Translations under genes and position numbers: made by a program
In this document: piece by piece, positions 2,663 to 18,991 of the stretch
Layout of the letters: each line of letters starts with the position of its first letter
Position numbering within the stretch: the first letter of the stretch is position 1
Assembly: GCA_964475835.1 (NCBI GenBank)
Contig: CAYYYL010000020.1
Span: forward strand, 1 to 49,097
Length of the DNA: 49,097 nucleotides
Source of the DNA: an uncultured Verrucomicrobiota bacterium
GTDB taxonomy: Bacteria; Verrucomicrobiota; Verrucomicrobiia; JABWAM01
Direction of reading: 5' to 3'
Notes under the pieces: model-generated
Databases searched by the model: none
Told to the model about the DNA's origin: nothing
Seen by the model: only the letters and a program-made list of their open reading frames with translations

Positions 2663-3529
2663 ATGAGTTCCTACAGATCCGCATATCCCGACGGTACGTT
2701 GTGCGATCCCACGACGAATTGGGCCAGCTATGTGGCCGATTTGATCCGTCCCCACGGCCCCCCTCCCGCCGTGATGCTTGTAGTGGCCCATCCCGATGAT
2801 GAAGCGATTGGTGTGGGAGCGCAGATCGCACGGCTCCGGGACGTGTTCGTCGTGCATGTCACCGATGGCGCCCCCAAGGATATGAAAGATGCCCGTGGCT
2901 GTGGGTTCCAAACGCGCATCGACTATGCACAGGCCCGGCGCAAGGAATTGGAACGCGCCATGTTGCTTGCAGGACTTCCCTCCAACCGGCTTTTTCAAAT
3001 GAACTACGCCGATCAGGAGGCATCCCTCAATCTGGTGGAGCTTGCGGGAGCGCTGGCCAAACTGTTCTGCGACATCCGGCCAGGCCTCGTTCTGACTCAT
3101 CCCTATGAAGGCGGGCATCCCGACCACGATGCTACAGCCTTCGCCGTTCACATCGCCCGGCATCTTCTTCAGGATTATAAAGCCCCACTTCCGATGGTGA
3201 TTGAGATGGCGTTCTATCACATGCGCTCCGGCAGTCGAAGCACGGGCGAGTTCATCACACGGCCCGAATGTCCGGTCAGCACAGCCCGCCTCACTCCTCA
3301 GCAAATCATGCTGAAACGAAAGATGTTTGACTGCTATGTCACGCAGCGCAACATCCTCAAGACCTTTCCCCAGGATGTGGAGCGGTTCCGTCCCGCACCC
3401 CTTTACCATTTCCAACTCCCCCCTCACGACGGAAAACTGTTCTACGAGAATTTCGACTGGGGCATGACAGGTGCACGGTGGCGCGATCTGGCCCGCGATG
3501 CCCAGCAACTCCTCGGCATTCCGATCTGA
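2663..3529 (+). CDS. PIG-L/LmbE-family N-acetylglucosaminyl deacetylase
   Basis: Has the LmbE signature VVAHPDDEAIGVGA with downstream His/Asp metal-ligand region (HPYEGGHPDHD). The ATG at 2663 was chosen to avoid overlap with the upstream gene. Confidence 0.7.
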   Translation: MSSYRSAYPDGTLCDPTTNWASYVADLIRPHGPPPAVMLVVAHPDDEAIGVGAQIARLRDVFVVHVTDGAPKDMKDARGCGFQTRIDYAQARRKELERAMLLAGLPSNRLFQMNYADQEASLNLVELAGALAKLFCDIRPGLVLTHPYEGGHPDHDATAFAVHIARHLLQDYKAPLPMVIEMAFYHMRSGSRSTGEFITRPECPVSTARLTPQQIMLKRKMFDCYVTQRNILKTFPQDVERFRPAPLYHFQLPPHDGKLFYENFDWGMTGARWRDLARDAQQLLGIPI

Positions 3530-3543
3530 TTTCTGGCTTCCAG

Positions 3544-5475
3544 CTAGGTTCCTACCCGGATGGGAAGAATAATCATGGGCACGCCCATCCAATGGAGTCG
3601 ACGTTGGATGGCAGTAGCCGTTTCGTTATGAAGAAGGCGGTGATACCAGTTCTCCCTCTGAAAAATCAGTTTTCCGCCAAAGAATACTGCTTTCGGAAAT
3701 TGTCGCGCAATCTGGTCACACATTCTTTCAGACTCCGCCACGGGATCCGTCCCAAGTTCCATGCGTATTTCCGAGGAAAGACCAAGTCGACCCGCCATCT
3801 CCTTGTATTTCGTCAGATCGTCACGGACTTTCGCCTGCAGGTGTTCCAGTTCGTCCCTCCCCTTGAAGGTTCCGGAATCAATCACTGCAGCCGACGCGAA
3901 AATCACCTGCCGGTACTGGCCCGGGAAAAGTTTCAAAATGGTAAGGAGGGTGTGAATGCCCAAACCGCCATAACCCGACACCAGTAAAACCGCAACGGAC
4001 TGCTTCCCGTCCAGGGCCTCATCCTCCGGCACCTTGGTCGACTCCCGGGGCAGATCCGTCAAGGTCGAAGACAGCATCCCCACCGCGCGCTGCACGGCAC
4101 GATAATGCCGGCGTATGAGAAAACAGAATCCCACCAGACTCAGTGTCACGAGCAAGGTGATCCATCCGCCTTCAGTAAATTTCTCGAAAACCACCATCGC
4201 CAGGATACCCACACAAACAAAGGACGCGCTCCCATGCACGAGCAAAGCCTTGGTACGCTTCTTTTCCCTGCGGGAAAGCCACATCCGGCACATGGCAATC
4301 TGGGAAAGTGAAAACGTGACGAAGACATTGATGGAATACATCGTCACCAGCGTGGTGATGTCGCCATGGCTGTAAAAAAGAATCCCCATGGAAGCCAGCC
4401 CCATGAGCAAGACCCCGTAGTGCATGGTGAGCTGTTCGGAGAGTGAACTGAACAAGCGCGGCAACCATCCATCGAGGGACATGTTTGCCATGACGCGGGG
4501 TCCGTCCAGAAATCCCGCCTGAGCCGCCACCATCAACAACCCGGCTTCCGCAAGCAGGGTGAGCACCACGAACCAGGGTCCGATATGGATGCGTTCCACA
4601 AGAACGGCATTCAACGTCTTGCCTTCCTCGACAGAAACCCCTGCGAGCAAGTAACAGACAAGAATCCCTCCGGCCGTGATCGCCAGCGAAGACGCCATGT
4701 AGGCCATCGTCTTCCTGGCCGTTTTCACCCTGGGTTCGCGCATCAGAAGCACTCCATTCGAAACAGCCTCGATTCCCGTGTACGTTCCCGCACCCCGTGA
4801 ATACGCATTCATGAAAATGAGAAACATCCCCCACAATCCAAGCTGATGCACATCACTTTTGAGCGCATGCACCGCATGGGTCGCCACTTCGGGAATCCGA
4901 TTGCCATAGACCACCAGGCATCCCATCAGCACCACCGCATGCGTGAGGATGAAAAGCATGAAGATCGGCACCACCAACTGCACCGATTCTTTCACACCGC
5001 GAAGATTCATCACGATCAACACCAGAATGAGAAAACATTCTGCGGGCAGTTTCCATCCATGAAGATGCAGGGGAAGAAAACTGAACACCTGATCCATCGC
5101 TGCAGCCACGGATGTCGTGATCGTGAGGACATAGTCCACCAGAAGCGCAGAACCGGAAACCACACCCCACGAGGGACCAAGCAACTTGGTCGTCACCACA
5201 TAGCCGCCGCCACCATGCGGAAAATGTTCAATGAGCAAACTGTAGGCGTACGAGATCAGAAATACGGTGGCGGCTGTGGCGAGCACGAGGAAGACAGCCA
5301 TCTGGGGGTGCCCCATGAGCGCCCGGTATGCTTCATCCGGACCATACGCCGAGGAACTCAATCCGTCCGCCCCCAAACCCACCCAGGCCAGGAAGGCCAC
5401 GAGCGAGATTTTGTGAAAAAGTCCGGGATCCTTCAGATCACGCGGTTTGCTGAGAAGAAATTGTTTGAGGGGCAT
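3544..5475 (-). CDS. APC-superfamily amino-acid/cation permease with C-terminal USP-like cytoplasmic domain
   Basis: 643 aa with about 12 predicted TM helices typical of the APC fold. A soluble C-terminal extension of roughly 170 aa follows. It is co-oriented downstream of the flotillin gene. Confidence 0.7.
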   Translation of the reverse strand: MPLKQFLLSKPRDLKDPGLFHKISLVAFLAWVGLGADGLSSSAYGPDEAYRALMGHPQMAVFLVLATAATVFLISYAYSLLIEHFPHGGGGYVVTTKLLGPSWGVVSGSALLVDYVLTITTSVAAAMDQVFSFLPLHLHGWKLPAECFLILVLIVMNLRGVKESVQLVVPIFMLFILTHAVVLMGCLVVYGNRIPEVATHAVHALKSDVHQLGLWGMFLIFMNAYSRGAGTYTGIEAVSNGVLLMREPRVKTARKTMAYMASSLAITAGGILVCYLLAGVSVEEGKTLNAVLVERIHIGPWFVVLTLLAEAGLLMVAAQAGFLDGPRVMANMSLDGWLPRLFSSLSEQLTMHYGVLLMGLASMGILFYSHGDITTLVTMYSINVFVTFSLSQIAMCRMWLSRREKKRTKALLVHGSASFVCVGILAMVVFEKFTEGGWITLLVTLSLVGFCFLIRRHYRAVQRAVGMLSSTLTDLPRESTKVPEDEALDGKQSVAVLLVSGYGGLGIHTLLTILKLFPGQYRQVIFASAAVIDSGTFKGRDELEHLQAKVRDDLTKYKEMAGRLGLSSEIRMELGTDPVAESERMCDQIARQFPKAVFFGGKLIFQRENWYHRLLHNETATAIQRRLHWMGVPMIILPIRVGT

Positions 5476-7778: not shown

Positions 7779-8171
7779 ACGATTCTCCAGACACATTCCG
7801 GGCGACGTGGTTTTCGACACACCTCCCCCGTTGCGTGCATTTCTCCCGCTCCTGCAAAAGAGACAGGAGGTTAATAATGAGGACTTGGGGAATCTGAAAA
7901 GACACCCTTGCCCTTGATGATTGCTGACGAGGTTAGCTGTCGGGCTAGAGCCACCAAGTGCTCCTGGTTTTGCAGAACCATACGCCCCAATCCGTTTTCA
8001 CGGAAAATGTGGGTCCCCCGCTGATCTGTTTCGATGTCAGACCATTAAGCTGCAAAGAACTGAGAACACTATTAGCATAACGCCCTCCGGGCGCAAGCAG
8101 ATGTGGACAAGATCTACGTAAGCACTTGATATCAGGCTAAATCCATTAACATCAAATGTCCTTATTTTTAT

Positions 8172-9028: not shown

Positions 9029-10225
9029 ATGGGTGCGATTCTTGCATTTGAAGACGGCACGGTGTTTCGCGGCGCAGCTTTTGGCGCTCGCGCAACCGCC
9101 ATGGGCGAGGTCTGCTTCAACACCTCCATGACCGGCTACCAGGAAATCCTCACCGATCCCTCCTACAAGGGACAGATCGTGACGATGACCTATCCCCTGA
9201 TCGGCAACTACGGCATCAACGAACTCGATGTCGAAAGCTCCCAACCCCACGTCAGCGGTTTTGTGGTTCGCGAAGTCTCCCGCATCGTGTCGAGCTGGCG
9301 TTCCGAAATGTCCCTCGAGGACTACCTCAAGAAGTACAAAATCCCGGGCATCCAGGGCGTCGATACACGGGCCATCACCAAGCATCTTCGCAGCCGTGGC
9401 GCCATGAAAGGCATTCTCACCACGGAATCCCTCTCCGATGCGCAAGCCGTCGAGCGCGCTCAAAAGTGGCAGGGCCTCGTCGGTGTGGACTACGTGAAGG
9501 AAGTGACCTGCAACGCCTCGTACGACTGGGATCCGAAAGATTCCCTCAGCCGCCGCTGGAGAATCCCAGGCACCAGCAACACCGTCGGAGGCGAGCCCGT
9601 TTCCGATGGGGTGGACCACGGCAAGGGACGCGAGACCTACCGTTGGAGTCTACCTCCTGTGCGCCATCGCATTGTCGCCTATGATTTCGGCATCAAACAC
9701 AACATCCTGCGCCGCCTGCGGCAACACGGCTTCGAAGTGCATGTCGTACCGGCCACCACTCCGGCTGCAGACGTCTTGAAGCACAAGCCCGAGGGCATTT
9801 TCCTTTCCAACGGTCCCGGGGATCCCTCCGTGCTCGACTACGCCGTGAAATCAGTTCGTGAATTGATCGGAAAGAAACCGATCTTCGGCATCTGTCTCGG
9901 GCATCAAATTCTGGGACAAGCCTTCGGCGCCAGCACCTTCAAACTCAAGTTCGGACATCGTGGCGGAAACCAGCCGGTGAAAAATCTCATCACCGGGAAA
10001 ATATCCATCACGTCCCAGAATCACGGCTTTGCCGTCGATCCGAAATCGCTGCCCAAGGATGTTCAGCAGACGGAAATCAATCTCAACGATCAGACCTGCG
10101 AAGGCCTCCGTCACCGCGAGCTCCCCATCTTCTCCGTCCAGTACCACCCGGAAGCCTCACCCGGGCCGCATGATGCCAGCAAACTCTTCGAGGAGTTCTC
10201 GAAGATGATCGAGAAGAAGAAATAA
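9029..10225 (+). CDS. carA: Carbamoyl-phosphate synthase small (glutaminase) subunit
   Basis: Conserved CarA N-terminus ([16 protein letters not shown]...[12 protein letters not shown]). Glutamine amidotransferase catalytic motif GICLGHQIL and a His/Glu region are present. The ATG at 9029 is preferred over the in-frame GTG at 9020. Confidence 0.9.
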
Positions 10226-10251
10226 CGCGAAGGCTGCATTGTAGAAGCCTC

Positions 10252-10296
10252 GCGCAAAGACGCAAAGAATTTCCGCTGTCTTTGCGCCTTTTAATG
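10252..10296. terminator. Bidirectional intrinsic terminator between convergent carA and the RCC1-repeat gene
   Basis: GCGCAAAGAC-(16 nt)-GTCTTTGCGC perfect 10-bp stem followed by CTTTTAATG. A second imperfect hairpin lies at 10226-10254. Confidence 0.6.
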
Positions 10297-10305
10297 AGAT
10301 GGCTT

Positions 10306-11805
10306 CTACTGCTCAGCCACTCCAAATTTGGTTAATGATCCATTCTGTCCTAAAATTCCAGCCGCGCCGGAAGTATAGGCTCCATCCGTCGTTTCAATCG
10401 TTGCTTGCCCGCATTTCAACTTCAATGAAGCGTGATCCAATGTGAAGGTTAGTGTGATCATCGGAAAACTACTAACTCCAGGCACTTCAGCAAATTTTAA
10501 TAAGATCAAATTTCCAGAATCAGCTCTGAAGATGGCGGCATAATACTTTCCGCCCTGCCTCACCATCGCTCCATAATAATAATTGGACTCCATTTGCCTC
10601 GCCAACATACCCATAAAACCACCTTCTGTCAGATTCCCCACTTCCACTTCCAGGGTCAAATTGGAGATGGGTTTGGCTTCGGTTGAACGCACGAGAGCCA
10701 CAGCAGGCGCATTATTTGAAATGGTGAGAAAAGGTCTATCATACAATTGCGAGTTCTCCACCACGCGCCAGAATCCCATGTTGGGTCCAGCAATCTCATC
10801 CCATGCACTTCCCAATGTTGAATCGCTCACAGGACGATCAAAGTTGTCCTGCAAATAAATCTCGGTTCGTCCAAACGCGCAAGGAACGCCTCCATTACCA
10901 ATCAATGACACATCGCGCAAATTGGCAGGCGGTGCCGGAGGGGGAACATTTCCACCAAAGATGCTTTGGCCGTAAAAGCCTTTTACAGTTCCGTCGGCAA
11001 GCAAAAGGTAATCCGATGTCATATCCATGACAGGAATTGAACCACGGGGAAAAACTGGATGCACCCCGGAAGCCAAATAGGCATAAGGAAGCCCGTTCGC
11101 CTGGATACCCAGAACCCAATTCATTGAATTGCTTAACATTTTTGTTAAATTACTTTTCGTCTCCATGATCCCAGTGGGCACACTAGGATCACCCGACGAT
11201 GTCAATAGGGTGCCGTCTTGCGTGAGAGCATAAAAATTTGCATAACTCATCGAGATCGAGCGAATTTTCACAAATTCCGAAGGAGTCACTACGGGAATTT
11301 TTTTGCCTTGAGCCACGATGGCGCTTCCCCAAAACACCACCGTTCCATCGCTCTTTAGAGCCATACTTGCCATGCCACCAGCAGCGACCATCGTCACGTC
11401 GCTTAAATTTGAGGGAACATCACATTGATGATTTGTATTGTCTCCCCAAGCCACCACGTGACCGTCCGATTTTAAGGCTAATGCATGATCCATCCCCACA
11501 GCCAGGGAAACCACGTGGTTTAAACCAGGAGGGACTTGTGAAGACAACCGCTTACCATAGGCGCTCACAACAGTGCCGTCAGTTCGAAGAATCAATACCC
11601 CGTTATAAGTTCCGCCGGCACTATTTTGATTGGCTGCTATCTGCTTTACATCGGTAATTTCAAAAAACGAGGAGGGAAAAGTATCGGCAAGAGGTCCCCA
11701 AGCCACCATATGCCGCGGAGGAGGTATCACGTCTGACCTCACTTCGACTGCCATTCCCAAAAAACAAAGACCACAAACTAATACAAAGGATAGATTTTTT
11801 TTCAT
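10306..11805 (-). CDS. Secreted RCC1-repeat beta-propeller protein with extra C-terminal domain
   Basis: Signal peptide (MKKNLSFVLVCGLCFLG). Repeated units of the form ...G..H..AL.SDG.V..WG.N..GQ are characteristic of RCC1/ATS1 blades. The gene is AT-richer than its neighbours. An alternative start lies at 11820. Confidence 0.65.
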   Translation of the reverse strand: MKKNLSFVLVCGLCFLGMAVEVRSDVIPPPRHMVAWGPLADTFPSSFFEITDVKQIAANQNSAGGTYNGVLILRTDGTVVSAYGKRLSSQVPPGLNHVVSLAVGMDHALALKSDGHVVAWGDNTNHQCDVPSNLSDVTMVAAGGMASMALKSDGTVVFWGSAIVAQGKKIPVVTPSEFVKIRSISMSYANFYALTQDGTLLTSSGDPSVPTGIMETKSNLTKMLSNSMNWVLGIQANGLPYAYLASGVHPVFPRGSIPVMDMTSDYLLLADGTVKGFYGQSIFGGNVPPPAPPANLRDVSLIGNGGVPCAFGRTEIYLQDNFDRPVSDSTLGSAWDEIAGPNMGFWRVVENSQLYDRPFLTISNNAPAVALVRSTEAKPISNLTLEVEVGNLTEGGFMGMLARQMESNYYYGAMVRQGGKYYAAIFRADSGNLILLKFAEVPGVSSFPMITLTFTLDHASLKLKCGQATIETTDGAYTSGAAGILGQNGSLTKFGVAEQ

Positions 11806-11993
11806 AAAAAATAATATCAAACGCCTGTTTAAAACATTGGATTTCTTGACTTTGACATCTTTAGAATCACATTTTCAACACAATTATCCTATTTAGATAG
11901 CATTGATGAGTTGTTCGTATTTATTTCACGTGCAGCTTGCGAACCACTTTGATCCACTATTGCTTCCCGCCAAAAACCCGTTAGCATGGCCCG

Positions 11994-13841
11994 ATGTGTG
12001 GCATTGTCGCATATGTAGGTACGGAACCCGCCGCGCCCCTTCTGATCGAAGGGCTTCGGCGGCTTGAATACCGCGGGTACGACTCCGCGGGCTTGAGCAC
12101 TCTCCATCGTGGAAAAATCGATACACGCAAGAAGCTTGGCCGCATCGATGTGCTCGCCTCTCTGATCCGTCACCAACCCATCGACGGCGACATTGGCATC
12201 AGCCACACCCGCTGGGCTACGCACGGGATTCCCAGCGACGAAAACTCGCATCCCCACCTCGATGCCTCCACCCGGATTGCCGTCGTGCACAACGGAGTGA
12301 TCGAAAACCATCAACCTCTCAAGGACTGGTTGATCAAGGAGGGCCACACCTTTGCCTCCGCCACCGACACCGAGGTGCTTGCTCATCTTATCGGCCAGCA
12401 CTACGAGACTGCCGGACAATTTAACGAACAGGGGCTCCTCGACGCCATTCGCGCCGCGCTTCGCCAGGTGGTCGGCACATTCGGACTTGCCGTTCTCTGC
12501 CGCGACTGCCCCGGCGTGATCATCGGAGCCCGACGTGGAAGCCCGCTCGTGGTGGGTGTGGGCAAAGGCGAAAACTTTCTCTCCAGCGATGTCAACGCCA
12601 TCGTCGCCCACACTCGGGAGGTGGTGTACCTGAGCGACAACGATCTTGCCATTCTCCACAAGGACGATTTTCGTGTCGAACGCCTCGATGATCAGGAGGC
12701 CAAGGTCGAAATCTGCACCGTGGACCACGATGCCGGTGCCTCCGAAATGGGAGACTTCCCCCACTTCATGCTGAAGGAGATTTTCGAGCAACCGCAGACG
12801 ATGCTCAATGCCATGCGTGGCCGTTTCAACCGAGACGACGCGTCCGCAACCTTTGGCGGACTGAACCTGACCAATGGAGAGCTCCGCGGTTACGATCGTG
12901 TCATCATGACCGCGTGCGGCACCTCCTGGCACGCCGCGCTCGTCGGGGAATACCTGATCGAGGAACTCGCGCGAATTCCATGTGAGGTGGAATATGCCAG
13001 TGAATTCCGCTACCGCAATCCTCCGATGGACAAGCACACGCTGGTCTTTGCCATCACCCAGTCCGGCGAAACCGCCGACACTCTCGCCGCCCTGCGGGAA
13101 GCACGCCGCAAGGGCCACATCGCCCTCGGCATCTGCAACGTCGTCGGCAGCACCATCGCGCGCGAATCGGACGGCGGCATCTATCTACGCGCCGGACCTG
13201 AAATCGGCGTTGCCTCCACCAAGGCATTCACCTCCCAGGTGACCGTTCTCGCGCTGCTGGCGCTCCACCTCGGACGCCTGCGGGAATTCTCCGCCACCCA
13301 GGGACAGCGCTTCATCCAGGAGATCGAACAGATTCCCGACAAGATTGGACAAATTTTAAAACAAAGCGAGGCCATCCGCCAGATCGCTCTGAAATACAAG
13401 GACGCCCGGGACTTCCTCTTCCTCGGCCGTCAGTTCAACTATCCCGTCGCGCTGGAGGGAGCATTGAAACTCAAAGAAATCTCCTACATCCACGCAGAAG
13501 GATATCCTGCCGCCGAAATGAAACACGGTCCCATCGCCCTCATCGATGAAAAAACCCCATCGGTCTTTCTCTGTCCCCAGGATGCGATGTATGACAAGAC
13601 CATGAGCAATCTCGAGGAAGTGAAGGCACGAAGCGGAAAGGTCATCGCCATCGCCACCGAAGGCGACAAAGAGATCCATCGTCGCGCCGACGACGTGATC
13701 TATATTCCGAAAACCATCGAGCCCCTCTACCCCCTGCTGACCAACATCCCCCTCCAGTTGCTGGCCTACCATACCGCTGTCGCCCTGGGGCGCGATGTCG
13801 ACAAGCCCCGCAATCTCGCCAAGAGCGTGACGGTGGAGTAG
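11994..13841 (+). CDS. glmS: Glutamine--fructose-6-phosphate aminotransferase
   Basis: The start MCGIVAY is the Ntn-hydrolase Cys1 motif. Two SIS domains and the C-terminal ...LAKSVTVE are present. Length 615 aa. Confidence 0.95.
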   Translation: MCGIVAYVGTEPAAPLLIEGLRRLEYRGYDSAGLSTLHRGKIDTRKKLGRIDVLASLIRHQPIDGDIGISHTRWATHGIPSDENSHPHLDASTRIAVVHNGVIENHQPLKDWLIKEGHTFASATDTEVLAHLIGQHYETAGQFNEQGLLDAIRAALRQVVGTFGLAVLCRDCPGVIIGARRGSPLVVGVGKGENFLSSDVNAIVAHTREVVYLSDNDLAILHKDDFRVERLDDQEAKVEICTVDHDAGASEMGDFPHFMLKEIFEQPQTMLNAMRGRFNRDDASATFGGLNLTNGELRGYDRVIMTACGTSWHAALVGEYLIEELARIPCEVEYASEFRYRNPPMDKHTLVFAITQSGETADTLAALREARRKGHIALGICNVVGSTIARESDGGIYLRAGPEIGVASTKAFTSQVTVLALLALHLGRLREFSATQGQRFIQEIEQIPDKIGQILKQSEAIRQIALKYKDARDFLFLGRQFNYPVALEGALKLKEISYIHAEGYPAAEMKHGPIALIDEKTPSVFLCPQDAMYDKTMSNLEEVKARSGKVIAIATEGDKEIHRRADDVIYIPKTIEPLYPLLTNIPLQLLAYHTAVALGRDVDKPRNLAKSVTVE

Positions 13842-13900: not shown

Positions 13901-13929
13901 TTGACAAAAGATATAAATATGATATCATA
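13901..13929 (+). promoter_or_regulatory. Sigma70-like promoter: -35 TTGACA (13901-13906), 16-nt spacer, -10 TATCAT (13923-13928), 27 nt upstream of the SPFH ATG
   Basis: Perfect -35 hexamer. 5/6 match in the -10 hexamer. AAGGA RBS downstream. Confidence 0.6.
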
Positions 13930-13937
13930 TTTATATC
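13910..13937. promoter_or_regulatory. Perfect 28-bp palindrome GATATAAATATGATATCATATTTATATC overlapping the -10 element (candidate operator)
   Basis: Verified base by base: symmetric about the 13923/13924 junction, 14/14 positions complementary. Confidence 0.7.
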
Positions 13938-13955
13938 ATCCTAGAAGGATTACAT

Positions 13956-14885
13956 ATGACAAAAGAACGAGAAGTTTATCCGTTGAATGGCTGGATCATG
14001 CTGGGGGTGAATCTGGCGACCATGGTGGGCTGTATCATCCTCTTCATCAAGACGATGGGCTCTGGTGAAATCTGGCCGGGGGTTGCGGTGATGGGGGAGG
14101 TCCTGGCGATTCTTTCGTTGACGGGACATTTTACCCTTCAACCCAACGAAGCCCGACTCCTGATCCTGTTCGGGTCCTACAAGGGAACCGTCAAGACAAG
14201 CGGCTTTTTCTGGGCAAATCCTTTTTATTCAAAGGGATTTTCGCTCCAGACCACACATGTGAACGGTCAGGTGAAGGTGAGTTCATCCTCCTCAAAAACG
14301 CGCATCTCCCTACGCCTGCGCAATCTCAACGTTCCGCAATTGAAGGTGAACGACAAACGTGGCAATCCGATCGAAATCGCAGCCGTGGTGGTTTGGCGGG
14401 TGCAGGACACCGCCCAGTCGGCATTCGACGTGGACGACTACGAAAGCTTCGTTCACCTGCAGAGTGAAACCGCTCTTCGTCACGTAGCGAACAGCTACGC
14501 CTACGATCAAGGGGAAGCCGATGAAATCACCCTGCTCAGCGGTGTGGAGGAGGTTTCCCTGGCTCTCAAGGCGGAGCTGGAACAACGCCTGGCGAAAGCG
14601 GGGATCACCGTCGAAGAAGTCCGCCTCACCCACCTGGCGTACGCTCCGGAAATCGCCGGCGCCATGTTGCGCCGTCAGCAGGCCGAAGCGGTCATTGCCG
14701 CCCGCCAGAAGATCGTGCTTGGCGCCGTCAGCATGGTGCAAATGGCATTGCAGGATCTCTCGGACAAAAAGGTGGTTGAACTCGACGAGGAACGCAAGGC
14801 CGCCATGGTAAGCAATCTGCTCGTCGTGCTTTGTGGCGAGCGGGACACCCAACCCGTGGTAAACACCGGGAGTCTCTACCAATAA
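13956..14885 (+). CDS. SPFH/band-7 (stomatin-prohibitin-like) membrane protein
   Basis: N-terminal TM hairpin followed by an SPFH core (QVKVSSS...[27 protein letters not shown]) and a C-terminal Ala/Glu-rich helix. AAGGA lies 7 nt before the ATG. Confidence 0.8.
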
Positions 14886-14897
14886 TGAACCTCTGAA

Positions 14898-15086
14898 ATG
14901 CCGGAGAACAAAAAATCCCTCCTGCTGCGAATCGATCCTGTGCTCTGGCGCGAACTCGAAGCCTGGGCACAGGACGAATTGCGCAGTGTCAACGGGCAGA
15001 TTGAATATGTCCTCCGGGAAGCCGTTCTCAAACGCCGCAAACGGGGCTCGAAAACCTCCACGTCGAACGGTAAAGAAAACGTGTGA
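14898..15086 (+). CDS. Arc-family ribbon-helix-helix DNA-binding protein
   Basis: The 62-aa protein LLLRIDPVLWRELEAWAQDELRSVNGQIEYVLREAV matches the Arc/MetJ RHH pattern (beta-strand LRlP..l, then ...gRSvN.eI...l). It starts 12 nt after the SPFH stop. Its stop overlaps the next gene's start as GTGA. Confidence 0.55.
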   Translation: MPENKKSLLLRIDPVLWRELEAWAQDELRSVNGQIEYVLREAVLKRRKRGSKTSTSNGKENV

Positions 15087-16630
15087 CCGATCTCAATTTC
15101 ATCCTGACCTGGATCGTCCTGATTTCCACGTTGGCGATGCTGGTTCGCCTCCTTCGGTTTAAAAAACATCTCTCCGCATCCTTCGGCTGGCTGGCTGTCA
15201 GTATCGGAATTCTCCTCTGCCTCGCCATTAGTTTCATCTTAGTTCCCGATGCTTGCGGGAAACTGACCGCCATGGTTTGGCTCAGCTTTCTAATTCTTCC
15301 CGCGATTGTAATCCAGCGTATGCGTCAACTTTTGATGCAGGGAAAATACAAGACAGGGCTGCTCCTTGCCCATATCGCCCGATGGCTTCATCCCTTCGAC
15401 GGCACCCGGGACCAGATCCAACTCGTACGGGCCATGAAACTCGCCCATGAGGGGGCGCTGGAGGAAGCATTGTCGATCTTCGACAAACATCGCAACGACC
15501 ATCACTCGGTGGGACGCGCCGCCACATTGAACGCCTATCGCTATCGCTCCGACTGGACCGGCATGCGTGAATGGCTCACTTCACTTCCCTCCCTTGATGC
15601 GCTGGCAAAAACTTTTTCCCTCCGCGCTTGTGGCGAACTCGGCGACCTGGATGCGATGATCCTGACGCTTTCTGAACTCGAGGAAGATCTTCTCCGCCTG
15701 AACGCCACCGAGGACTTGATGGCGGCACGCATGATGACTTTCGCTTTTTGCGGACGCGTGGAGCTCACCCGCGAACTTCTGGAGGGTCCCATCACCCACC
15801 TTCCCCCCTCCCACAAAAGCTTCTGGATGGCCACAGCAGAACTCGCTTCTGGGGATGGATCCGCCGGCTACGAGTTCGAGGAAATGGTGAAGGATCCCCA
15901 TGTCCTCGTACGGCAAGACGCTGCCTATCGTCTGAGACACCCTCCCGCGTATGCAGCCGGGTTAAGTCCCGAAAGCGAACGCTCCCTTCTCGCACTCGAA
16001 CAACGATGCCGGGGGGAAGGCACCGAGGGAAAACCCTTCGCACAAGTCCAACGCGGGGCCTACGCCACCTTCATTCTCATTGGGTTAAATCTGGCGACAT
16101 TCCTCCTGGAAGACTATGTGGGCGACAGCACAGATGCGGACACCCTCTATTCGCTCGGCGCACTCCTTCCCTCCGCGGTCTGGAACGGTCAGTGGTGGCG
16201 GCTTTTCACCTCCCTGTTTTTGCACGCGGGATGGCTTCATATTGCCATGAATATGATGGGACTCTACTACTTCGGTCCCTTCCTCGAACACAGCTACGGC
16301 CGGATGAAATTTCTTTGCACCTACTTCATCTCTGGCCTATTGGCCTCCTTCACCATTTTGATTTTATCCCTTTGGTTCGGTGAACAGATGGTTGTGGGAG
16401 CCTCCGGTTGTCTCATGGGCATCCTCGGCGCCACCCTCGGAGTGCATCTTCACTACTGGAGGCATCATCAAGTCCGTGTCGCCCGTCAACGACTTCTCTT
16501 TCTTCTCACCATCCTGGGAATCCAGGTGGTGTTTGACATCGTCACACCCCACATCAGTTTTTCGAGCCACCTCTTCGGAGCTTTGTACGGTTTTGGTTTC
16601 GGATGTTTATTCAAACCAAAGCAGCTCTAA
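15083..16630 (+). CDS. Rhomboid-family intramembrane serine protease with N-terminal TM + TPR-like cytoplasmic extension
   Basis: The C-terminal 6-TM core carries the rhomboid signatures: HIAMNMMGLYYFGP, a catalytic GASGCLMGILGA (GxSG) and a downstream H in FSSHLFGALYG. The N-terminal roughly 300 aa have 3 TM helices and helical repeats. Confidence 0.75.
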   Translation: MTDLNFILTWIVLISTLAMLVRLLRFKKHLSASFGWLAVSIGILLCLAISFILVPDACGKLTAMVWLSFLILPAIVIQRMRQLLMQGKYKTGLLLAHIARWLHPFDGTRDQIQLVRAMKLAHEGALEEALSIFDKHRNDHHSVGRAATLNAYRYRSDWTGMREWLTSLPSLDALAKTFSLRACGELGDLDAMILTLSELEEDLLRLNATEDLMAARMMTFAFCGRVELTRELLEGPITHLPPSHKSFWMATAELASGDGSAGYEFEEMVKDPHVLVRQDAAYRLRHPPAYAAGLSPESERSLLALEQRCRGEGTEGKPFAQVQRGAYATFILIGLNLATFLLEDYVGDSTDADTLYSLGALLPSAVWNGQWWRLFTSLFLHAGWLHIAMNMMGLYYFGPFLEHSYGRMKFLCTYFISGLLASFTILILSLWFGEQMVVGASGCLMGILGATLGVHLHYWRHHQVRVARQRLLFLLTILGIQVVFDIVTPHISFSSHLFGALYGFGFGCLFKPKQL

Positions 16631-16780: not shown

Positions 16781-18991
16781 TCAACCTTCCACTCGACCGA
16801 AGGAACGCAACCGCAGACTGTTCCCCACCACACACACATCGCTCATGGCCATAGCCGCGCTTGCAATCATCGGATTCAACAACCAGCCCCAGATCGGATA
16901 GAGCACTCCTGCGGCAACGGGAATGGACAGAACGTTGTAGCAAAAACTGAAAAACAGATTCTGACGAATCACCCGCATCGTCTGACGCGAAAGCATCAAG
17001 GCATCAACCACACTCATCAGGCTGCCGCGTATGAGGGTGACGTCCGCCGTTTCGATGGCCACATCCGTTCCGCCGCCCATGGCAAATCCCACATCCGCCT
17101 GAGCCAGCGCCGGGGCATCATTGATGCCATCCCCCACCATGCCCACCCTGGCTCCATCCACCTGCAGCTCACGAATGCGACCCGCCTTTTGCTCGGGCAT
17201 CACTTCCGCCAGCACTTGACCGATTCCCACCTCCTTCGCCACCGCTTGCGCCACCAGCGTGTGATCTCCCGTGATCATCACCACCTGGAACCCCATCGAC
17301 TTCAGCTTCGCCACCGCAGCTTCGGAATCCGGTTTCACACGATCCGAAATCGCCATCATTCCCGCCACCACGTCATCCACCATCACCAGAACCGGCGTGC
17401 GCCCCTTTAATGCAAAACCCGCAGCAATTCTCTCAACTTCGGGGGAGACCGCCTGCACTCCCATTCGTATCACCCGCACACGTTTGCCCGATACGACCGC
17501 CTCGACCCCCGTTCCCCCACTGGCTCTGAATTCCGAGGGATCCGTCAGCGAAACCTGACAGGCACGGGCATGGACCACCATTGCATGGGCGAAGGGATGC
17601 TCCGAACGTTGCTCCACCGAGGCAGCCCATCGGATCACCTCCTTCTCAGCGAATCCCGAAGCGGACCAGATCCCCGTCACGGACGGCTTGCCCTCCGTGA
17701 GGGTACCCGTTTTGTCGAGCACGATGGTTTGGAGTCGAGACGTCATTTCCAGAGCCCCGCCACTTTTCACCAGCACCCCCATTTCCGCTCCGCGACCCGC
17801 CGCCACCATGATGGCCGTGGGCGTGGCCAGTCCCAATGCACAGGGACAGGCGATGATGAGCGTGGTGACAGAGGAAACCACTGCCAGCTCAAACGCATGG
17901 CCGGATGGTCCCCACGTCATCCATGCCGCAAAGGTCAGGCACGCCAGAAGAATCACCGCGGGCACAAAATAGCCACTGATCACATCCGCCATCCGCGAAA
18001 TGGGCGCGCGTGACCCCTGAGCCTCCTTCACCGCCCGGATGATCTGTTGGAACACCGTTTCAGATCCCACACTCCGGGCATGAAAACGAAAGCTGCCGTT
18101 GCGATTGAGGGTGGCACCAATAACCCGATCGCCCGCCGCTTTTTCCACCGGCATACCCTCCCCCGTGATCATCGATTCATCCACGGAGGATGAACCATCC
18201 ACAATCATTCCATCCGTAGGGATTTTTTCACCGGGACGAACCACGATCAGATCCCCCACACACACCTTCTCCACCGGGATATCCGACTCGACTCCATCCC
18301 GCACCACCCGGGCGGATCGGGGTTGTTTTTCGAGAAGCGCCTGAATGGACTGGCGCGTGCGATTCGTGGCACGCTCCTCGAGCCGACGCCCCACGGAAAC
18401 CGTTGCGATGATCACCGCAGCGGCTTCAAAATAAACATGCGGCGTCTGACCGAAACGCACCCACCATCCTGGACAAAAGGTGGCCGCCACACTGTAAATG
18501 AAGGCCGTGCCCGCCCCCACGGCAATCAACGTGTCCATATCCGCCGTCCGGCGCTTCCACGCCAGCCATGCCCCGCGGAAAAACGGCGCACCCGAAACCA
18601 ACACAACCGGTGTGGCCAGCAACAGGGCGATGATGGCCCCCCCCTGAATATGAACATCGCCCATGCCAAGAATCAGCAAAGGAATCGACAACCCGACGGC
18701 GAGGAGACTTCTTCCAGAAAGAATCGGAGAGGAAGACGGGGGGTGCATCGCAGACGACTCCATCCCCACGGCATATCCCGCAGCGTGAACCGTCTCCTTC
18801 AGACGAATCTCATCCATGTGAGCCGGGTCATACTGCACACGAGCCTCCCGCGCCGCGAAATTCACCTGGGCCGAGATCACTCCCGGCTGCTTTTCGAACG
18901 CCTTCCTTAAGTTGGCGGCGCAGGAGGCACAACTCATCCCCTCAATTTGAAATCGCCGCTCCTTTATGGATGCAGAAGAAGGATTCATCAT
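16781..18991 (-). CDS. copA: Copper-translocating P1B-type ATPase
   Basis: N-terminal HMA domain [16 protein letters not shown] motif [12 protein letters not shown]. Phosphorylation site DKTGTLT and hinge [10 protein letters not shown]. Length 736 aa. Confidence 0.9.

Follow-up and report, generated by a model that had tools for sequence, protein, structure and literature searches.

Prokaryotic genes for SPFH proteins occur in conserved two-gene operons with NfeD (PMC2636767). These SPFH-NfeD or STOPP operons (SPFH1/2/5; PH1511-PH1510, YqfA-YqeZ and YuaG-YuaF), together with HflKC-FtsH, are among the closest described counterparts of the locus considered here, a group of three genes at positions 13901-16630 of a 49,097-nt stretch of DNA (the window; contig CAYYYL010000020.1) from an uncultured Verrucomicrobiota bacterium. 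The three genes encode an SPFH/Band-7 protein, a small Arc-like ribbon-helix-helix (RHH) protein and a rhomboid intramembrane serine protease. The SPFH protein shares with the known systems an SPFH domain, and it has a candidate N-terminal membrane anchor and a C-terminal region that looks helical. However, its conserved partner is the RHH protein (80 of 80 related loci), not NfeD or a protease, and none of the three proteins has a Pfam NfeD match. The survey by Hinderhofer et al. describes SPFH subfamilies 6-12 as small and undocumented and does not mention a DNA-binding partner (PMC2636767).

The small protein resembles Arc and Mnt of phage P22, CopG, MetJ and omega in its predicted strand-helix-helix domain of roughly 45 residues, in which an RSVN turn falls in register with RSVNSE of Arc. 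As in Arc-type autorepressors, there is no ligand domain, and short repeated subsites about one turn apart lie over the gene's own candidate promoter. However, the RHH proteins of this kind form a distinct, tightly conserved clade encoded as the last gene after a membrane-scaffold gene, their operator has three 8-bp GATATC-type boxes whereas that of Arc is a 21-bp site of two half-sites, and unlike phage Arc and Mnt they are chromosomal in many phyla and not phage- or plasmid-specific. The parts are of known kinds (Band-7, Arc-type RHH autorepressor, rhomboid S54), whereas the SPFH-RHH pairing with a cross-phylum operator appears to be undescribed: no description of the cassette or of its operator was found in full-text literature searches. 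Some SPFH orthologue may nevertheless carry a functional name in one source or another.

The conserved unit at this locus is a two-gene SPFH-RHH cassette plus operator, found in more than 10 bacterial phyla. We consider it probable that the cassette is an autorepressed operon to which, in the lineage of the window, a rhomboid with intact catalytic motifs and a predicted helical-repeat domain has been fused. A GTDB scan with one genome per species and the RHH alignment as query gave at least 599 pattern matches and at least 579 confirmed RHH loci, and the best-scoring 80 of these (at least 579) form the locus set used for comparison, with 822,559 bp retrieved in all and open reading frames (ORFs) called mechanically. 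In tblastn searches with the window proteins, an SPFH orthologue lies directly 5' of the RHH gene in all 80, at 55-79% identity (55-70% for near-full-length matches), and the distance from SPFH stop to RHH start is typically 6-20 nt. The original prediction of a conserved RHH protein is upheld by this arrangement and by more than 1,900 homologues (1,962 at E<=0.01). The 80 loci come from Verrucomicrobiota, Acidobacteriota, Planctomycetota, Chloroflexota, Actinomycetota, Omnitrophota, Hydrogenedentota and Myxococcota, and the cassette is also found in Bacillota, Bacteroidota, Deinococcota and Alphaproteobacteria. Carriers in a plasmid collection are Bacillus thuringiensis, Parabacteroides, Prevotella, Phocaeicola, Deinococcus, Nonomuraea, Acetoanaerobium, Qipengyuania, Bosea and Rhizobium. 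The proteins of the window itself have their nearest relatives in Verrucomicrobiota MAGs.

The promoter region and the two genes of the cassette comprise the following features in the window:

13901-13906, + strand: -35-like hexamer TTGACA, a putative promoter element from a consensus scan
13909-13938, strand-neutral: operator of three 8-bp boxes at 11-bp spacing, enclosing a 28-bp palindrome, defined by the palindrome and comparative alignment
13909-13916: left operator box, aGATATAA
13920-13927: central operator box, TGATATCA
13923-13928, + strand: -10-like hexamer TATCAT preceded by TG (putative extended -10), within the central operator box, from a consensus scan
13931-13938: right operator box, TTATATCA
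13943-13949, + strand: putative Shine-Dalgarno-like element AGAAGGA, 6 nt 5' of the SPFH ATG, read from the sequence
13956-14885, + strand: SPFH/Band-7 protein, 309 residues, identified by Pfam Band_7
14898-15086, + strand: Arc-like ribbon-helix-helix protein, 62 residues, identified by homologue profiles and hhalign

In the ORF listing, glmS (11994-13841) lies directly 5' of the locus. The SPFH stop codon TAA occupies 14883-14885 and the RHH ATG starts 12 nt further on, while the rhomboid GTG (15083-15085) overlaps the RHH TGA (15084-15086) as a 4-nt GTGA. The features claimed beforehand, namely the SPFH, RHH and rhomboid genes at their coordinates, the GTGA overlap, the 28-bp palindrome and a near-consensus promoter match, are all present in the sequence. 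The promoter candidate TTGACA-16-TATCAT (13901-13928) matches 11 of 12 consensus positions in a consensus scan and overlaps the palindrome, which consists of GATATAAATATGAT followed directly by ATCATATTTATATC (13910-13937; 14+14 nt, 100% complementary, zero spacer). In 49 kb of random sequence, about 2e-4 such perfect palindromes are expected by chance (49097 x 4^-14).

The operator is conserved beyond the window. Of the 76 loci that keep upstream DNA, 70 have an exact TGATATCA 5' of the SPFH gene, and only one copy occurs elsewhere in all 822,559 bp of retrieved loci. Alignment of 77 sites gives the consensus nGATaTCA-nta-TGATATCA-nnt-nGATAnCa, with box centres 11 bp apart, and the flank boxes differ from the core at 2.4 positions on average, whereas background differs at 5.8. 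In 67 of the 77 related loci TATCAT or TATCAC within the central box holds the -10 register, and most related loci have a TTGACA-like hexamer upstream of the operator, usually 16-18 nt from the -10. The operators of B. thuringiensis (TGATATAA-aag-TGATATCA-ttt-TTATATCA) and of the alphaproteobacterium Qipengyuania (TGATATAA-ata-TGATATCA-taa-TTATATCG) are nearly the same as that of the window, and the operator boxes of Parabacteroides (TAATATCA) have the same spacing. A second exact TGATATCA in the window, at 8127-8134 between ORFs ending at 7905 and 8172, was considered as a further operator; it has no flank boxes at +/-11 bp, the chance expectation is 0.4 per window, and it is probably not an operator.

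A natural control is provided by 13 SPFH homologues from the plasmid collection, independent of the 80-locus set. All 10 loci with an RHH gene downstream, among them Bosea and Rhizobium, where the RHH ORFs are unannotated, carry upstream a box that deviates at no more than one position, whereas none of the three RHH-less loci (D. radiophilus, D. proteolyticus and P. aeruginosa pHN232-2) has a box, their best matches carrying 2-3 mismatches (Fisher probability 1/286). Since the box tracks the RHH gene across these loci, the operator is tied to the RHH protein and not to the SPFH gene or to promoter needs.

The cassette also has a second, recurrent three-gene form, SPFH-[PH gene]-RHH. About 17 of the 80 loci, most of them from Opitutaceae, have a third gene between the SPFH and RHH genes, and the RHH gene stays last. 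The inserted gene (for example L034:5410-5997 and L027:5412-5975) encodes a protein of 165-195 residues in which two transmembrane (TM) segments are combined with a PH domain of the bacterial type (bPH_5, E down to 3.6e-11), and is present at loci L012, L013, L015, L026, L027, L034, L037, L047, L054, L056, L063, L069, L070, L071, L076 and L083. A different setting is seen on the 31-kb plasmid pDrdIV of Deinococcus wulumuqiensis (L091), where the cassette lies among AbiEi/AbiEii, AbrB/Fic, an IS5 transposase and an ImmA/IrrE-HTH pair, a mobile and defence-rich environment unlike that of most chromosomal copies.

The SPFH protein matches Pfam Band_7 (PF01145) over residues 60-252 (6.2e-25; 88.7 bits against a cutoff of 23.6), gives weak HflK/HflC scores in NCBIfam and has stomatins as its nearest solved structures among PDB sequences (E 1.5e-4). 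Two hydrophobic segments (about residues 13-33 and 40-57) are seen at the N-terminus by inspection and in alignment A3. By the same means, residues 230-265 in the C-terminal part form a conserved, apparently helical region rich in A/Q/R, and a PVVNTGSLY motif is conserved at the C-terminus. Across alignment A3 the mean column identity of the subfamily is 53%, with 49-68% global identity across phyla. By homology the protein would form an oligomeric assembly like that of stomatins, presumably a cage, probably with its N-terminal hydrophobic hairpin as the anchor. FlotP of B. anthracis, which is an SPFH2a flotillin with an NfeD partner, was for that reason set aside as a characterised homologue.

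In the RHH protein the predicted layout is a strand, KSLLLRI, at residues 6-12, helix A at about 14-27, an RSVNG turn and helix B at about 31-45, followed by a basic, variable tail that is unconserved and of low complexity after residue 47. An alignment of 22 sequences from several phyla has 20 invariant columns (invariant positions K6, L9, L10, R11, P14, L16, W17, E21, W23, E27-N32, Q34, E36, L39, A42 and R46), and 21 of the 22 match RHH_5 at E<=0.01 (best 3.5e-6), many of them also matching HicB and ParD_like. When the family was compared by hhalign with P22 Arc, the two aligned in register (E=0.0023), with the strand KSFLLRI paired to QFNLRW and RSVNGQI to RSVNSEI. NCBIfam has no model for the clade, and NCBI names many of the orthologues 'Arc family DNA-binding protein' and some 'HicB family antitoxin'. 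The genes in B. thuringiensis (L089:3860-4024) and Qipengyuania (L093:3243-3434) carry the probably misleading name 'toxin-antitoxin system HicB family antitoxin', and those on Bosea pANAM02 (L092, about 3447-3600) and Rhizobium leguminosarum pRlX5 (L099, about 2336-2500) are absent from the gene tables. Within the RHH coding region of the window lies an imperfect inverted repeat (14936-14974; 14 nt, 86% complementary, 11-nt loop). The 57-nt segment that contains it has a folding energy of -28.5 kcal/mol, and comparison with mononucleotide shuffles gives a z of about -3.9, while 80 orthologous segments have a mean z of -1.2 with 29% below -2, so that the repeat is at best weakly conserved.

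The third gene of the window encodes a protein with the following parts:

15083-16630, + strand: rhomboid intramembrane serine protease, 515 residues, GTG start, identified by Pfam Rhomboid; lineage-specific third gene
15083-15337, + strand: N-terminal extension with three predicted TM helices (residues 4-25, 27-53 and 58-85; AlphaFold2 (AF2) model m532399002105)
15347-15937, + strand: predicted helical-repeat (TPR/PPR-like alpha-solenoid) domain, residues 89-285, 12 short helices (AF2, weak Foldseek matches)
16061-16609, + strand: rhomboid catalytic core, residues 327-509 (alignment A2 and GlpG alignment)

Pfam Rhomboid is matched over residues 369-510 (2.7e-31), and the GTG start is backed by an N-terminal 'M.DLN.IL' kept in the homologues. 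Alignment A2 shows no variation at W372-R373, H381, H386xxxN390, G439-A-S441-G442 or H496, and the motifs align to GLS201G, H254 and H150xxxN154 of GlpG. The catalytic serine and histidine expected by the original prediction are kept as Ser441 (codon 16403-16405) and His496 (codon 16568-16570). The AF2 model (pLDDT 84.7; mostly 80-94 in the helical-repeat block) places the core close to GlpG structures in Foldseek (TM-score 0.72-0.80 normalised to target, probability 1.00), and by its motifs, with WR in loop 1, HxxxN in TM2, GxSG in TM4 and the histidine in TM6, and by its predicted six-TM rhomboid fold the protease is judged catalytically intact. Judged from the basic loops RFKKH and RMRQ..KYK, the N-terminus would lie outside and the repeat domain in the cytoplasm. 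The TPR-like extension proposed beforehand is the weakest point: a 12-helix repeat domain does appear in the AF2 model, but no Pfam TPR family matches the protein (YscG alone, at E 0.024), and Foldseek gives only weak TPR/PPR matches (E 0.06-0.16, high rmsd). Full-length relatives are few, about 10 at 32-36% identity in the whole collection of 5.8 billion proteins, and these few homologues are labelled 'rhomboid protease GluP' by JGI. The predicted layout resembles that of GluP/YqgP-type rhomboids of B. subtilis, which combine an active rhomboid core with extra TM helices and an extramembrane TPR-like domain. However, the TPR domain of GluP is C-terminal and outside the cell, whereas here three TM helices and a repeat domain predicted to be cytoplasmic come before the core.

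In the proposed mechanism, each of the three boxes would be bound by one RHH dimer, its paired N-terminal strands (KSLLLRI) reaching into the major groove, with successive grooves occupied along a single face of the DNA. Cooperative binding would occlude RNA polymerase, so that the operon would repress itself and SPFH dosage would come under negative feedback. In the lineage of the window alone, the rhomboid gene, joined by the GTGA, would be co-transcribed and translationally coupled under the same repressor, and the three genes presumably share a single transcript. Since the RHH protein lacks a sensor domain and has an unconserved tail, derepression would have to come from titration, from proteolysis or turnover, or from dilution. 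Family analogy and comparative genomics are what suggest DNA binding and repression by the RHH protein. Several points weigh against this account. The central GATATC is invariant in 77 of 77 aligned sites, a figure inflated by the choice of operator sites by core match, although the flank boxes and the genome-wide count are unaffected by that choice. The spacing from -35 to -10 varies between loci, so that the overlap of operator and promoter is not uniform. Among the domain assignments put forward for profile searches, Band_7 and Rhomboid were recovered and TPR was not, while the window RHH protein alone matches RHH_5 below the cutoff (E=0.0056; 16.8 bits against 26). A profile of the RHH alignment found no solved RHH structure among PDB sequences, returning spurious matches to ACP and protocadherin, and the AF2 monomer has helices at 8-12 and 14-55 but no strand, with no Foldseek matches. 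We regard a strandless monomer as expected for an obligate dimer, and therefore as uninformative and not as confirmation.

The original prediction had described the three genes as a self-contained, autoregulated membrane proteolysis module. Such a unit, in which an SPFH cage would corral or gate the rhomboid, perhaps through the helical-repeat domain, while the RHH protein sets the dose, is rather unlikely. The GTGA overlap, and the failure of a sequence scan to find any promoter-like + strand site or convincing terminator between 13929 and 16630, place the rhomboid in the operon here; the protease appears catalytically intact and carries an unusual domain of a protein-interaction type, and charge distribution suggests that this domain and the SPFH domain both lie in the cytoplasm. 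SPFH-protease partnerships recur in NfeD/STOPP and FtsH (PMC2636767), and SPFH-rhomboid complexes exist in eukaryotes as SLP2-PARL-YME1L (SPY; PMC10818064) and erlin1/2-RHBDL4 (bioRxiv 10.1101/848754), so that the pairing is not undescribed, as had been stated, where eukaryotes are concerned. In these complexes, as in the triad, an SPFH scaffold and an active rhomboid are expressed together, which makes a functional analogy possible; however, they are biochemically shown complexes, whereas here the link is operon membership in one lineage and any physical contact between the two proteins is presumed. Against a conserved unit, tblastn finds no rhomboid within 6 kb at any of the 80 SPFH-RHH loci, none of the four full-length rhomboid homologues on long contigs has SPFH or RHH neighbours, and the triad is repeated only on short metagenome contigs of the same species (L001-L003, 99-100% identical). 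In the closest RHH relatives, at 85-87% identity, the next gene is a TolC-like OEP gene, in another relative it is a methyltransferase gene, and elsewhere diverse co-directional genes abut the RHH stop, a heterogeneity that makes third genes look like opportunistic accretions. The cassette therefore accepts extra genes, often membrane-associated, of which the rhomboid of the window is one case, and the absence of rhomboids from other cassette loci, the contexts of the rhomboid homologues and the varied downstream genes together mark it as a lineage-specific 3' accretion. The evidence says that its joining was a recent, lineage-specific fusion and not the emergence of a conserved machine. The module as first proposed is set aside on this lack of synteny, and of the self-contained operon the autoregulation is supported by conservation of the pair and of the three boxes and by the co-occurrence of operator and RHH gene, while the rhomboid is lost as a core member. 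A further proposal adds to the autorepressed operon a membrane-state feedback by partner-switching, similar to PspA-PspF, in which the SPFH cage would either sequester the RHH protein when unloaded or release it when loaded, the present lineage having captured a rhomboid; we hold this to be quite improbable.

A defence-type cassette had also been suggested; it has no support, as PADLOC matches none of the three proteins and no RHH relative was found on the 2.9 M viral contigs of IMG/VR. Both negatives bear equally on a related idea, that of a toxin-antitoxin-like pair in which the RHH antitoxin would neutralise a membrane-perturbing SPFH 'toxin' under conditional cooperativity, as an addiction or abortive-infection element. 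The matches of the RHH domain to HicB and ParD_like antitoxin profiles, the 'HicB family antitoxin' names, the compact two-gene operon with its operator over the promoter, the patchy spread across phyla and the occurrence of some copies on plasmids, one of them beside AbiE, Fic, IS5 and ImmA/IrrE genes, would all fit such an element. However, the RHH tail after residue 47, which in antitoxins is the toxin-binding part, is unconserved and of low complexity, and the SPFH protein, highly conserved across phyla (49-68% global identity) unlike fast-evolving toxins, matches no toxin family; we know of no toxic activity of SPFH proteins. Most copies are moreover chromosomal with ordinary neighbours, and SPFH relatives without an RHH gene exist, so that a toxin-antitoxin role appears very unlikely. 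The least probable of the readings gives the small protein a place in the SPFH complex as a structural subunit, or a role in its assembly, with the palindrome read by another factor or serving merely as promoter. It would account for 20 invariant positions across phyla, which is extreme for a repressor, for the single long helix of the AF2 monomer, for the failure to find an RHH structure in the PDB by sequence and for a central box that doubles as an extended -10. Yet the family aligns in register with RHH_5, HicB, ParD_like and Arc, strand and RSVN turn included, the flank boxes are not promoter elements, and the box is missing exactly where the RHH gene is missing in the 13 control loci. 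Repeated boxes one helical turn apart are typical of RHH operators (Arc, MetJ, CopG), and the three boxes here have this spacing.

The TolC-like gene found after the cassette at three loci (L102:1447-3021, L103:3983-5554 and L104:1467-2963) encodes roughly 523 residues and matches PF02321 (1.7e-10). At L103 it begins 43 nt past the RHH stop and may be another co-transcribed third gene. Its similar size made it a candidate counterpart of the rhomboid 3' of the closest RHH relatives, which was rejected as the TolC-like OEP protein (PF02321) is unrelated. A conserved third gene was likewise rejected: the downstream ORFs in 79 loci cluster among close relatives only, leaving 53 singletons, and many downstream genes lie on the opposite strand.

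The roles of most bacterial SPFH (stomatin- or flotillin-like) proteins are unclear, and the present subfamily brings with it a gene for a putative dedicated repressor. The operator hardly varies between Bacillus, Bacteroidota, Deinococcus, Acidobacteriota and Verrucomicrobiota and so offers a simple experimental handle, and in tractable carriers such as the B. cereus group, Parabacteroides and Deinococcus a reporter driven through the TGATATCA box could reveal the derepressing condition. Annotation is corrected for a small gene that has been called 'hypothetical', 'HicB antitoxin' or 'Arc family', or left uncalled. For the rhomboid field, the window offers a rare bacterial case in which a rhomboid predicted to be active would fall under the regulatory control of an SPFH operon. 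Were partner-switching to operate, the cassette would report membrane or protein-quality stress, and the locus of the window would be a bacterial counterpart of the mitochondrial SLP2-PARL hub in which protease dose is set by scaffold occupancy.

The neighbours of the cassette in the window, glmS and a heavy-metal P-type ATPase gene (16781-18991, - strand) that converges on the 3' end of the rhomboid gene, are not conserved in the related loci. On D. radiophilus pRadio1 a P-type ATPase gene (L094:127-2238), whose product is 38% identical to that of the window, divergently adjoins the RHH-less SPFH homologue; this is the sole recurrence of the adjacency among 95 loci and probably a coincidence. 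Just 5' of glmS, at about 10200-12000, the GC content falls to 0.43-0.49 from 0.57-0.61 in the flanks, and this segment may be foreign DNA. The dip spans an ORF of 504 residues (10306-11820, - strand) with a signal-peptide-like N-terminus and, judged by eye, RCC1-like blade repeats.

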